This document shows, piece by piece, positions 4,054 through 25,105 of a DNA stretch of 64,000 nt (the stretch's first letter is position 1; each line of letters begins with the position of its first letter). Where the stretch lies: positions 779-64,778 of IMG/VR virus record IMGVR_UViG_3300015063_000001; one strand, 5' to 3'. A program made the position numbers and the translations under genes. The notes under the pieces are model-generated. The model did no database searches, was not told where the DNA came from, and saw nothing but the letters and a program-made list of their open reading frames with translations. The DNA comes from a virus.

Positions 4054-4858
4054 GCTCCCTACCGTTGAGGAATTGCAGCGCCGTCACGCGGCGGCCTGTG
4101 ATCTCAAACAGCCGGTAAATCAAGAAAAAATTAAAATTGCCTTGACCGAATGGTGCTCCCAAATTGGGGCGCCGAAGGATACGAAGATCACCTTCGTATC
4201 TTCTGGGGAGGAGATTAAAATAGCCGCCAGGGCCGCCAGGGCCACCAGGGCCGCCAGGGCCACCAGGGACGCCAGGGCCGCCTGGGCCGCCAGGGCCGCC
4301 TGGGCCACCAGGGACGCCAGGGCCGCCTGGGCCGCCTGGGCCACCAGGGACGCCAGGGCCGCCTGGGCCGCCTGGGACGCCAGGGCCGCCTGGGACGCCT
4401 CTTGGATTTCGATTACCGCCATCGGCGCGGTTTCAGTCGGCGATGAAAAGCTAGCGCGGGTCTGGCTTCCTATTCTTGAAGCCTTTGAAGCAGGCGCATT
4501 TGCCTTTTTTGTGACTGACGCTGAAATATTTGTTTCGACTATTCCTGCAAAGGTAAGCGTTGACGAACAACGCCGCCTACATTGCGCTGATGGTCCAGCA
4601 TTTGTTTGGATGAACGATGTTGTCGATCATTACTGGCACGGCGTCTACGTTCAACCTTACATCATCACGTCGCCAAACAAAATAACCGTGAAGAAGATCG
4701 ACGCAGAAAAGAATGCCGAAGTTCGCCGTGTCATGATTGATCGGTACCGACACGCCGATGAAATCAAGGGCGCTGCTGCATATATTCGTGATGCTGGCGG
4801 CAAGCGTCTCGATCACGATGAGAGGTTCGGTACGCTTTGGCATCGCGATGCGGATTGA
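4040..4858 (+). CDS. DUF6745-like protein with Ala/Trp/Arg repeat, apparently C-terminally truncated
   Basis: RLHCADGPAF.W...YWHGV.V...I..EKNAEVRRVMIDRY. Ends shortly after GTLWHRD. Confidence 0.7.
   Translation: MLPTKLPTVEELQRRHAAACDLKQPVNQEKIKIALTEWCSQIGAPKDTKITFVSSGEEIKIAARAARATRAARATRDARAAWAARAAWATRDARAAWAAWATRDARAAWAAWDARAAWDASWISITAIGAVSVGDEKLARVWLPILEAFEAGAFAFFVTDAEIFVSTIPAKVSVDEQRRLHCADGPAFVWMNDVVDHYWHGVYVQPYIITSPNKITVKKIDAEKNAEVRRVMIDRYRHADEIKGAAAYIRDAGGKRLDHDERFGTLWHRDAD
4226..4396 (+). repeat. 19 tandem 9-bp units RCCWGGGMC, in frame (A/T-R/W-A/D)
   Basis: Counted unit by unit: gccagggcc, accagggcc, accagggac, gcctgggcc, gcctgggac. Confidence 0.95.
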
Positions 4859-10749: not shown

Positions 10750-10912
10750 CGGTATCTCCATGATGAAACCTTGCCTCTAGCGGAACAATGCCGCGAATGC
10801 TAAAAAGTTCCATGGGTGTTAAACGGGCGTAAGGTGGACGGTCAACGCGGCGATTTTCCCGGTTTCCCGCCGCGGCACAACGAAACGGCAGACGAGGATC
10901 TGGCACTTTCCC

Positions 10913-11353
10913 ATGGCTATTAGAGAGATTATCCAAGGGCCGGACGACCGGCTACTGCAACCGTCCGCTCCGGTCGGTGAACTGACGGCCGACGTCCGGC
11001 GCGTCATCGATGATTTGATCGATACCAGATATCTAGGCCGTGGCGCCGCCTTAGCCGCGGTGCAAATCGGTGAACATATCCGCGTGGTGGTGACGGACCC
11101 AAAGCTGTTCTACGGCTTTAAGGGGATGATTAACCCGGAGATCATCAACCGCGGGAAGCAGATTGTCGAAGCGCTGGAGGGCTGCATGTCGATCCGGCAT
11201 GGGCGGCTGCGGTTCAAGGTGAAGCGCAACCAAGTCGTCACCATTAAATTCCGCGGCCTGGACGGCGGCGAGCACACCATAGTCGCCAAGGGCATGCCAG
11301 CGCGCCTCGCGCAGCACGAAATAGACCACCTCGACGGGAAGCTGATCGCGTGA
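10913..11353 (+). CDS. def: peptide deformylase
   Basis: Three PDF motifs: GAALAAVQIG, EGCMSI, QHEIDHLDG. Confidence 0.92.
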   Translation: MAIREIIQGPDDRLLQPSAPVGELTADVRRVIDDLIDTRYLGRGAALAAVQIGEHIRVVVTDPKLFYGFKGMINPEIINRGKQIVEALEGCMSIRHGRLRFKVKRNQVVTIKFRGLDGGEHTIVAKGMPARLAQHEIDHLDGKLIA

Positions 11354-21300: not shown

Positions 21301-21873
21301 ATGACCACACAGAATCAAGCCCAAGCCCCCCGCCCCGCCCGCGTCCCGCGCGCGCCGCGCGCCGCGGTTCGTACCGCCGAGCACCAGCCGGATTCCAGCG
21401 AAATGGAGCGCGAGCCGGAGCGCGAAGCAGCGCACACCGCGCCGCGCGCCAGAACCAGGCAGCGCCGGTCCGAGATCAACAACGACCCGTATGCCGTTCC
21501 GCTCGATGAAATTCCGGAAGGCTCGAGCTACGAGTGGAAGCGGCTTTCCAATATCGGCGAGGAAAACCCGTTCTACATCGCGGAAATGCGGCGCCAGGGG
21601 TGGGAGCCGGTCGACCCGAAGCGCCATCCGAACTGGGTGCCGCCTGGCTACAATCTGCCGACGATCGTCAAGGGCGGCCTGATTCTGATGGAACGCCCGA
21701 TCGAACTGACGAAGGAAGCCCAGGCCGAGCAGCGCGTGTTGTCGCGGCGCCAGATGGTCGAGGCCGAACAGCGTCTCGGCATGACGCCGAAGGATACGCT
21801 GACCCGGCAGCACACCGGCGTCGAGCCCCGCGTCGAGAAACAAATGATGCGGCCGGTCCCGATCGAAGAGTAA
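21301..21873 (+). CDS. conserved head-module protein
   Basis: PEGSSYEWKR...RQGWEPV...GGLILMERP, recurrent upstream of capsid genes in related podoviruses. Confidence 0.75.
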   Translation: MTTQNQAQAPRPARVPRAPRAAVRTAEHQPDSSEMEREPEREAAHTAPRARTRQRRSEINNDPYAVPLDEIPEGSSYEWKRLSNIGEENPFYIAEMRRQGWEPVDPKRHPNWVPPGYNLPTIVKGGLILMERPIELTKEAQAEQRVLSRRQMVEAEQRLGMTPKDTLTRQHTGVEPRVEKQMMRPVPIEE

Positions 21874-21899: not shown

Positions 21900-23078
21900 A
21901 TGTTTCTGAACTATAAATATCGGCTCATACCAAACAAGCGCCAGCATAGGGCGCTTGCGGATATCTGTGAGTCTCAGCGGCAACTCTACAACGCCGCACT
22001 TGAGGAAAGAATCGACTGCTATCGCAAGACTGGCAAAGGCCGTTCCTACTTCGATCAATGCAAGGCCGTGACAGAGTGTCGTCACGCCTTGCCAGAGATG
22101 GGTGCATTGCCGGCCAATCTCCAGCGGTGGACGCTAAAGCGTTTGGACGACGCTTATGCTGGGTTCTTCCGCCGCTGCAAGACAAACGGCAAAGCTGGAT
22201 TTCCGCGCTTTCGCGGTAAGGGCTGGTGGAGCAGTTTCGGGTTTGCCACGTTCAGTGGCGTCGAGTTTGACGGTAAGCGGCTTCGTTTCAAGGGATTTCC
22301 AGGCGGCTTGCGCGTTCATATCTGCCGTCCGCTTCCACAGGATTGTAGAATAACATCCTGCGTTTTCAACCGCGACCACAAAGGCTGGAACGTCTGTTTC
22401 CAGATCGAGGTCGCGGCGGCAGAGAAAAAGGCGATTGCAAGCGAGGTCGGCATCGACGTCGGGCTTATCGCTTTCGCCTACCAAAGCGACGGCGTTGCAA
22501 TTCCTGCACCGCAGTTTGCGCGGCGCGCTGAGCGTGAAATGCGCCGTAGACAGCGCGCTTTGGCCCGCTGCAAAAATGGCTCCAACTGCCGCAAGAAGGC
22601 GAAGGAGCGCGTCGCCCGTCTGCACCGCAAGATCGTTAATGTTCGCACCACTTGGCTGCATCAGCAGTCGGCGCGCATCGTAAATTCATACGATTTAATC
22701 GCCGTTGAAGATTTGAAAGTCGCCAATATGGTTAGGAATGGCCATTTGGCGCGTTCAATATCCGATGCGTCGTGGTCTACTTTCACAAATATGCTGTCCT
22801 ATAAAGCTGAAAAGGCTGGTGGGACCTTCGTGAAGGTTGACCCAAGGATGACTTCGCAAATCTGTTCTGGCTGCGGAGTGGTTGTGAAAAAGGGCTTGGC
22901 TGATCGGGTGCATTCGTGCCCTGATTGCGGACTAACTCTTGATCGCGATCACAACGCGGCGATAAACATTTTGCACCGGGCTGGGAATCGTCCGGGGGCC
23001 GCTAACGTGATCCAAGTTTGGGATGAGCGTTGGCCCGGAAACATGCCAGAGGCTCCCGCAAGGGGGCGAGTGGTATAA
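21900..23078 (+). mobile_element. tnpB: TnpB RNA-guided endonuclease (IS200/IS605 superfamily), no tnpA nearby
   Basis: N-terminal YKYRLIPN; GFPRFR; RuvC GIDVG, AVEDL and DRDHNAAINI; zinc finger CSGCG...CPDCG. Confidence 0.92.
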
Positions 23079-23365
23079 TTTCCAACACAAAGCCAAGCCG
23101 CAGCGTCTTACGAAAGCCGGTATGCACTTGGCTTTCTGCGTCCGACTACGAAATATTTGCCAGCTTGGCCAGAGCGAACAATGTCACCGTCGCAATGTAT
23201 ATGCGCGGGATAATCGTCGACGCGATCGCCGACGAGACCAAAACCTTAAACGTGCCGCGCGCAGCATCTTGTCAAATCGCTACAGGTTGCGGTATTACTG
23301 ATTCACCGATACCAGCATTGCGCGCCGCAAGTGCTGATGGGCTGATCGCCTCGCGCCGAGATTGA
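23030..23365 (+). CDS. ribbon-helix-helix-like protein; start uncertain, overlaps the tnpB 3' end
   Basis: RKPVCTWLSASDYEIFASLARANNVTVAMYMRGIIVDAI fits a beta-helix-helix CopG pattern. Confidence 0.45.
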   Translation: MARKHARGSRKGASGIISNTKPSRSVLRKPVCTWLSASDYEIFASLARANNVTVAMYMRGIIVDAIADETKTLNVPRAASCQIATGCGITDSPIPALRAASADGLIASRRD

Positions 23366-23447
23366 TCGCCAACGCGGACCCGCCAAGCCCGAGCCGGGCA
23401 GAGGCAAAATCCAAAACCAAGTGATGGCTTCCGCGCGCCGTGGAAGC
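23313..23447 (+). ncRNA. candidate structured leader with three hairpins sharing a G-CGC-C triloop
   Basis: Hairpins at 23313-23336, 23344-23367 and 23427-23447, paired by hand. Confidence 0.5.
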
Positions 23448-23539
23448 GGAACCTCTAGGTCGATCTGCGCCGTACCGGCACAGGGACGCCAAGACTGAGG
23501 CTACTGCGCGCTTTCATAGCTGCGCGAGGGAGATTGAAA

Positions 23540-24175
23540 TTGGCAAACACGCTTGCACCCTTCGGCTTCGTCCAGGTCGGCACAGCTTCCGGCCCCCCGA
23601 ATTTTGCACGGGCTGGTAGCCCGTCGCCTTACAAGATCGCCGCCGGCTTCACCACCGCGATTTACTTCGGTGACGCCGTCAGAATGTGGGTGTCTGGCGA
23701 CTCCGGCACCTCATCGGCTGGCTACATCACGCCTTGGGTCGTCGCCGACGGCGGCTCGGCCACCAAAATCCTGGCCGGCATCTTCCTGGGGTGCGAATAT
23801 TATTCAACGGGCCAACGCAAGACGGTCTGGAACAACTACTGGCCCGGTTCGGACGCCACTGGCGACGTGACCGCCTTCGTCTGCGACGATCCGCAGTCAC
23901 AATGGATGGTCCAGGCCGGCACCGCTGCCGTTCCGATCACCGCCGCCTCGATCGGCGCCAACGCCGATATCATCACCACACCGGTCGGCAACACGACCAC
24001 CGGCATCTCCGGCATGACTCTGGGTGTCCCGACGACCACGGTCACGCTGCCGTTCAAGGTGGTCAACCTTGTGCAGTCGCCTCCGGGTGTCAACGGCCGC
24101 GACGTCGCGACGGCGTACAACAACGTCATCGTCGCATTCAACAACCAGATCTACAAAGCCGGCTTGGGGGTCTAA
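23540..24175 (+). CDS. minor capsid / head decoration protein
   Basis: SD GAGGGAG plus TTG; MANTLAPFGF start and immediate pre-capsid position; strongly GC3-biased. Confidence 0.75.
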   Translation: MANTLAPFGFVQVGTASGPPNFARAGSPSPYKIAAGFTTAIYFGDAVRMWVSGDSGTSSAGYITPWVVADGGSATKILAGIFLGCEYYSTGQRKTVWNNYWPGSDATGDVTAFVCDDPQSQWMVQAGTAAVPITAASIGANADIITTPVGNTTTGISGMTLGVPTTTVTLPFKVVNLVQSPPGVNGRDVATAYNNVIVAFNNQIYKAGLGV

Positions 24176-24178
24176 ACC

Positions 24179-25105
24179 ATGGCAATCAACGTCACAGCCA
24201 TTCGTGATCTCCTTCTCCCTGGTCTCCGTGGGGTCACCGGCGAATACAAGCAGTGGGCCTCGATCTGGCCGAAACTGTTCGACCAGGGCAAGTCCGAAAT
24301 GGCGCAGGAGCGCACCGCTTCCATGCGGTTCCTCCCGCTGGCGCAACTCAAGTCGGACGGTGGTCAGACTTTCTTCGACAACGGCAGCGGTGAGGCTTTC
24401 GTCTACAACCAGCTTCACACCGGCATCGGCCTTGGTTACGCGATCACCCGCAACACGATCGCGGACAATCTCTACAAGGCGCAGTTCCGGCCGTCGAACC
24501 TCGGCCTGCAGCGCAGCTTCGCGCAGACCAAGGAAATCTACGCCGCGGCGGTGTTCAACAACGCCACGACCTACGACAGCACGGTTGGCGGCGATGGTGT
24601 CGCGCTTCTGAGCACCGCGCACCCACTGCCGTCCGGCGGCTCGGGCCCGGCGACTTGGGCGAACGCGCCGACGACCAACGTGGACCTCAACGAGTCGAGC
24701 CTGCTCAACGGCATGATCTCGATCCAGACCGGGTTCTACGACAACGCTGGTCTCCGCATGATGGCGACCGGCAAGACGCTGGTCATTCATCCGAACAACG
24801 AGCCGGTCGCGCTGCGCCTGCTCCGCGCCGAGCGCCGGCCCGGCACTGCGATGAACGACCCGAACGTGATCCCGATCACGGCCGGCGGCGTCACCGAATA
24901 CGTCAAGGACGTGTTCTTCACCTCGCCGTACCCCTGGTACATCAAGACCGACCAGCCCGGCCTGCTATACCTCGAGCGCGAACCGTTCGAGATTGATATG
25001 CAGGTCGACTTCACCACGGACAACCTGCTGGTGAAGGCCTGGGAAAGATACTCGTTTAATTATAACGATCCCCGCAGTTTATGGGGTTCCTCTCCCACGT
25101 CTTAA
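24179..25105 (+). CDS. major capsid protein (Mu gpT-like)
   Basis: 308 aa; very strong codon bias; GLGYAITR..IADNLY, GGDGVALLSTAHP, DFTTDN..KAWERYSF. Confidence 0.9.
   Translation: MAINVTAIRDLLLPGLRGVTGEYKQWASIWPKLFDQGKSEMAQERTASMRFLPLAQLKSDGGQTFFDNGSGEAFVYNQLHTGIGLGYAITRNTIADNLYKAQFRPSNLGLQRSFAQTKEIYAAAVFNNATTYDSTVGGDGVALLSTAHPLPSGGSGPATWANAPTTNVDLNESSLLNGMISIQTGFYDNAGLRMMATGKTLVIHPNNEPVALRLLRAERRPGTAMNDPNVIPITAGGVTEYVKDVFFTSPYPWYIKTDQPGLLYLEREPFEIDMQVDFTTDNLLVKAWERYSFNYNDPRSLWGSSPTS

Follow-up and report, generated by a model that had tools for sequence, protein, structure and literature searches.

How are the capsid genes of a tailed phage silenced, or kept in proportion, when they lie behind a promoter of the host type? 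Outside a few models this is poorly known, and the question is raised by the capsid region of the window, i.e. the whole 64,000-nt stretch of DNA analyzed here, which is part of an 81.6-kb virus record. The gene order in this region (the leader and the genes with coordinates from p190 to the major capsid gene are on the plus strand) is portal, co-chaperonin GroES, a scaffold-like protein (so assigned by its position and composition, with no database match), p190, a solo TnpB, an RHH-like ORF, a structured leader, a gene for a 211-aa protein (23540–24175) and the gene for the major capsid protein (24179–25105; phrog_371, with annotated capsid homologues). The unit opens with the gene for the 211-aa protein, whose structural model points to a capsid decoration (cement) protein: the best matches of this AlphaFold model are decoration or stabilising proteins (FCWL1, Z 7.5; HFTV1, Z 7.3; TW1, Z 6.4), with middling Z-scores and agreement among the top matches. 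The comparative analysis identified the leader as a member of a real, conserved and apparently undescribed family of cis-regulatory RNAs.

The leader spans about 205 nt (23308–23513), from just 3' of a conserved, predicted sigma70-type promoter to the ribosome site of the decoration gene, and comprises five hairpins (P1–P5). The first-pass annotation had described three stem-loops (23313–23336, 23344–23367 and 23427–23447), each with the apex CGCGCCG, and these were found exactly as written. They correspond to P1 (23313–23336; pentaloop GCGCC closed by C23321–G23327), which probably sits near the 5' end of the transcript, to the bulged P2, here extended to 23340–23370 (loop GCGCC, C23352–G23358), and to P4 (23427–23447; loop GCGCC, C23434–G23440), the counterpart of a hairpin found at about -85 in the relatives. 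P3 (23376–23412), with two internal loops and the loop GAGCC (C23390–G23396; apex CGAGCCG), had been overlooked, and the "weaker fourth GCGCCG" reported at 23467 turned out to be a stem strand of P5 (23452–23500), a long imperfect hairpin with the loop GTACC (C23471–G23477; apex CGTACCG). In most relatives the loop of P5 is GCGCC; at the base of the hairpin, the helix involves the G-rich, SD-like tract found in the relatives, and its columns are of the pyrimidine:G type, with 31/36 paired. A further stem proposed just before the SD does exist (P6, 23504–23528), but it lies beyond the conserved family model, which stops at 23513, and forms with the SD (GAGGGAG, 23526–23532) and the TTG start codon at 23540 a window-specific segment (23504–23542). 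Extra segments with a stronger SD after the conserved element are also seen in other leaders with a TTG start (L001, L107 and L116), and may have been left behind by earlier insertions.

Three identical 7-nt hairpin apices within a 235-nt stretch arose in 3 of 3000 dinucleotide shuffles. The folding stability of this stretch as a whole is ordinary (z -0.01), so the signal resides in the repeated apex and its conservation, and not in the folding energy. A second set of identical hairpin apices in the window (4300–4385) has no relation to the leader; it is a short tandem repeat in what is probably coding sequence.

Searches of viral, metagenome and genome collections led to a set of 147 distinct leaders. 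The family is present in most of about 150 distinct loci; the phages concerned come from soil and fresh water and belong to the HTVC023P-like head lineage. Each leader has two to five hairpins. The close class, to which the window belongs, consists of 42 leaders from phages whose capsid proteins, where present, are 84–94% identical; these leaders contain 86 hairpins topped by C-R-N-G-C-Y-G, while shuffles predict 2.9, and the same count yielded a single hairpin for the opposite strand and 5 in coding controls. In a test free of any assumed stem, the pair adjoining the motif was Watson-Crick in 85% of cases, with all four pair types represented. Both covariation and conservation of the loop, which the first-pass annotation had proposed to look for in homologous leaders, are present: when 12 leaders were aligned by plain MAFFT, double changes were seen at 28 of the 56 pairs (including 8/10 pairs in P1 and 6/9 in P4), a number matched by 0 of 500 shuffles, and control alignments that had been slid pair at just 30–46%, below the real stems. 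An alignment fitted to the family model, and hence biased toward it, supports stem covariation as well. The G-U pairs in the stems indicate that the element functions as RNA encoded on the plus strand. A pattern built from the P3–P4 linker produced matches at chance level, with none of 79 tested loci scored by the family model.

The family model detected a single copy of the leader in each of six near-complete genomes (6/6). Its position is constant, before the decoration gene; in L116 (2402–2870) an HNH gene is inserted between the two, exactly at the start codon of the leader; judging from this arrangement, the inserted gene would come under the leader's control. A predicted sigma70-type promoter-like site, TTGTCA - 18 nt - TATTAC, precedes P1 in the window (23269–23298). 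It was not called by a scanner for strict consensus promoters; its arrangement is conserved, TTG-N17/18-TA being found 5–18 nt 5' of P1 in 25 of 28 relatives, where shuffling leads one to expect 1.7. Transcription therefore probably starts at the leader, which would form the 5' end of a transcript of its own. Comparison with the covariance models of Rfam 15 revealed no match to the leader, either of the window or of 20 relatives, the best permissive hit having an E-value of 5.8; no family reached the gathering threshold, in agreement with the novelty suspected earlier. No description of the leader was found in the literature, though the catalogue of about 10,000 viral RNA candidates by Fremin and Kyrpides may include the motif unnamed. 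Together, the covarying stems, the constant position, the promoter-like site conserved ahead of P1 and the lack of an Rfam match lend good support to one of the two proposals of the first-pass annotation, a novel cis-regulatory RNA.

Leaders were also found in more distant phages, with about 60% capsid identity. Leaders of this distant class are shorter, often lie 3' of a terminator-like hairpin and a promoter-like site, and possess two hairpins at about -85 and -45 from the start codon, as do P4 and P5 in a typical close relative, with loops of the form YCGGY. A 20-nt pattern for one of these hairpins recurs on at least 120 viral contigs; of 78 independent matches checked, 76 end 23–32 nt 5' of the start codon of the decoration gene. 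When the pentaloops at the two conserved positions were read in both classes without any assumed sequence, the third base was G in 217/254, and in 188 of these 217 loops positions 1 and 4 can pair (tally for positions 1-4: C-G 98, G-C 56, U-G 33, A-C 17). The two loops of one leader belong to the same class, G1-C4 or C1-G4, in 83 of 83 cases. With respect to its sequence, the switch between the classes looks like a compensatory swap within the loop, on the basis of only 2–4 evolutionary events. The identical CGC triloop of the first-pass annotation thus holds for the three apices of the window, but the relatives vary, and a pentaloop RNGCY closed by C-G fits them better; for copies of the window's class a CGC triloop is still a possible description, because the switch comprises so few events and because the pair between loop positions 1 and 5 finds weak support there as well (Fisher p 0.04). 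The last hairpin of the distant class (e.g. L062, 860–900) contains in addition a conserved internal loop, UAR opposite UGAN, with an apparent resemblance to the UAA/GAN motif of tertiary contacts.

The distant class also offers a view of how the ribosome site may be governed. Opening of this site costs 12.6 kcal/mol, compared to 9.1 kcal/mol for the capsid gene, and a helix hiding the start codon is conserved (-6.5 vs -2.1 kcal/mol in letter-shuffled sequences), yet lacks covariation of its own (p 0.10). The start-codon helix competes with the last hairpin, whose lower stem covaries (p 0.0005) and overlaps it; an anti-SD hairpin is kept, too. In the window's class, the SD (0.68) is not more paired than that of the capsid gene (0.63), and occlusion of the SD in the close clade is no better than in shuffles and controls.

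The repeated loops on unrelated, covarying stems give the leader the look of a protein-binding array, as in the targets of CsrA. The reading that we prefer, with roughly an even chance of being right, is that the leader is a multivalent protein-binding element controlling translation of the capsid genes. According to this model, the 5' leader of the decoration-plus-capsid transcript would present one loop fold, in two to five copies, to an oligomeric or multiply bound protein, and the bound protein would control initiation of translation of the capsid genes. An array of binding sites for one protein, the other proposal of the first-pass annotation, is on sequence grounds the most likely mechanism. 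In the distant class, the ligand may stabilize the last loop-bearing hairpin and thereby free the start codon, i.e. act as an activator. If the ligand were a head-assembly protein, with p190 the first candidate, scaffold or capsid protein the next and the decoration protein the last, capsid synthesis would be coupled to assembly. The most detailed version, in which free head-assembly protein (p190 or scaffold) binds an array of pentaloops similar to the Smaug element and turns on capsid translation, so that coat protein would appear only in the presence of its assembly partner, with a loop code (G1-C4 vs C1-G4) that shifts in all copies together, is a more venturesome guess to which we assign a small probability.

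Analogy with known systems suggests that, in its mode of action, the leader comes closest to a translational operator or switch bound by a protein. The leaders bound by CsrA/RsmE, and likewise the CsrB/RsmZ sponges, present a single loop motif on several hairpins whose stems are unrelated, as does our leader. However, its loops are RNGCY/YCGGY and do not expose GGA, which argues against a CsrA/RsmE target or sponge, and it is cis-located and single-copy, without a terminator before the gene. The Smaug recognition element, CNGG(N), is a pentaloop in which positions 1 and 4 pair, G3 is recognised and the fifth base bulges out (PMC2275152, PMC4253089). CCGGY loops of the distant class literally fit CNGGN, whereas in the loops of the window (GNGCY, i.e. 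GCGCC and GAGCC) the pair is swapped and CNGG(N) is not matched. The Smaug element is eukaryotic and bound by SAM domains, no match to SAM_2 (PF07647) was detected in five phage genomes, and the likeness concerns the loop pattern only. In the mom gene of phage Mu, a leader hairpin carries a loop motif and binding of Com melts the structure that hides the initiation site (PMC6483171). The two alternative helices of the distant class are compatible with a switch of this kind; the motif, however, differs, mom is not a capsid gene, and here two to five repeated loops are present. No Com-like zinc finger was found among the genes common to the complete leader-bearing phages compared. In phage P22 the scaffolding protein reportedly regulates its own synthesis post-transcriptionally (Wyckoff and Casjens, 1985, cited in PMC2115188), which is similar in that a head-assembly protein governs expression of head genes after transcription, and different in that the scaffold controls its own gene; we know of no multi-hairpin leader before coat genes. 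The features compared here and below place the leader outside the Csr, put, Smaug-element and omega-RNA families.

Which protein could be the ligand? The genes common to all complete leader-bearing genomes compared are exclusively virion-building ones. The KTSC protein, named as a candidate by the first-pass annotation, is unlikely as a required partner, because it was undetected in several close relatives and in every distant leader-bearing phage examined, while scaffold and capsid protein, also named there, remain candidates. To these we add p190 (21301–21873; 190 aa), a conserved protein with an Arg-rich N-terminal stretch, on account of its gene, which lies upstream in all complete leader-bearing genomes and normally directly upstream of the leader. 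The p190 position is also filled in leaderless relatives: among cultured phages, HTVC023P, Caulobacter RW and others whose capsid proteins are about 35% identical keep the gene order and lack the leader, with 14–82 nt in its place. p190 exhibits no match in Pfam or the PDB and no named match in the Atlas, and structure searches returned nothing above Z 4.3, only uncharacterised phage proteins, which is no proof of a new fold. The type of its Arg motif does not track the type of loop, as all four combinations occur. The loop class changed 2–3 times on the tree of p190 and likewise on that of the capsid protein, and 4 times on the decoration tree. These events are too rare to settle the ligand; the trees fail to separate p190 from the capsid protein as ligand, and the decoration protein appears slightly disfavoured. 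A host factor is possible as well. Should p190 prove to be the ligand, the leader could tell us what a phage protein that is very common, yet without a name, does, and it may reveal a new loop-binding fold.

Or perhaps the loops bind a host RNA-binding protein or a component of the ribosome, or simply stabilise the mRNA and enhance its translation into the two virion proteins of highest abundance, with no phage-encoded switch? The phage genomes share no dedicated regulator, and 5'-terminal hairpins are known to protect bacterial mRNAs, so this explanation has its merits; we consider it rather unlikely, since plain stabilisers need no fixed loop, while here G3 and the 1-4 pair are kept, both loops shift class together, and the number of hairpins varies across the family.

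Control could also be exerted at the level of transcription, with the nascent leader binding the host RNA polymerase or a Nus-like factor in a put- or nut-like manner and rendering transcription of the structural operon processive. A long late operon lies downstream, and the Arg-rich stretch of p190 invites comparison with the N protein of lambda. The put RNA of HK022 is likewise a structured nascent RNA directly behind a phage promoter; it binds the zinc-binding domain of the beta-prime subunit, suppresses pausing and termination, and serves the early operons (PMC9378689). Nevertheless, put consists of two dissimilar adjacent stems without repeated loops (PMC9378689), which places the leader, with its five hairpins and one repeated loop, outside the put family. 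Moreover, the last two hairpins keep their spacing from the start codon (about -85 and -45) and not from the promoter, there is one copy per genome, and in the distant class a start-codon helix overlaps the last hairpin. A role in transcription is thus distinctly unlikely.

Contacts between RNAs are less probable still. GCGC, GGCC and YCGG are self-complementary, and 63% of the close-clade loops could form 4 bp with themselves, so that loop-loop kissing, be it inside one leader, from one leader to another or with an antisense RNA, might yield a compact or multimeric RNA. However, the remaining 37% are limited to 2 bp, complementarity within leaders (0.34) is not above that obtained by permutation (0.29), the family model finds neither a second copy nor an antisense partner, and no kissing-loop covariation was found. 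That the repeats are DNA operators of the adjacent RHH protein, or a TnpB omega-RNA, or a product of chance is suggested by the RHH and TnpB genes that adjoin them in the window, and is largely refuted by the motif counts, by stems that covary with G-U pairs on one strand, by the same loops in phages in which RHH and TnpB were both undetected and, for omega-RNA, by the start of the leader about 230 nt past the tnpB stop and its retention in relatives without tnpB, which makes this explanation exceedingly improbable.

The intergenic site is crowded by mobile genes. The solo TnpB insertion of the window (21900–23078) lies outside the leader element and is missing from most leader-bearing relatives; in L008 and L017 a solo TnpB occupies a different position, just upstream of the leader. 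The RHH-like ORF (23093–23365) was identified by a match of a relative to RHH_7 (E 2e-4) and is confined to the close clade, none being detected in the distant class; its tail overlaps the promoter, P1 and P2. In the window (23073–23095) TCC replaces the start Met of the relatives, next to the end of TnpB, and the ORF may be broken or started elsewhere. Comparison of L128 and L139 with L159 revealed that the decoration gene apparently recombined between loop classes, with the leader staying with p190 and the capsid gene. The window also contains a copy of the Rhizobiales sRNA Atu_At1 (Rfam; 10807–10915, 85 bits), which, together with the occurrence of relatives in Rhizobiales genomes, suggests an alphaproteobacterial host. 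Rhizobium sp. BK316, which is in culture, carries in a prophage-like region a short, two-hairpin version of the leader (L246), which makes the system testable at the bench.
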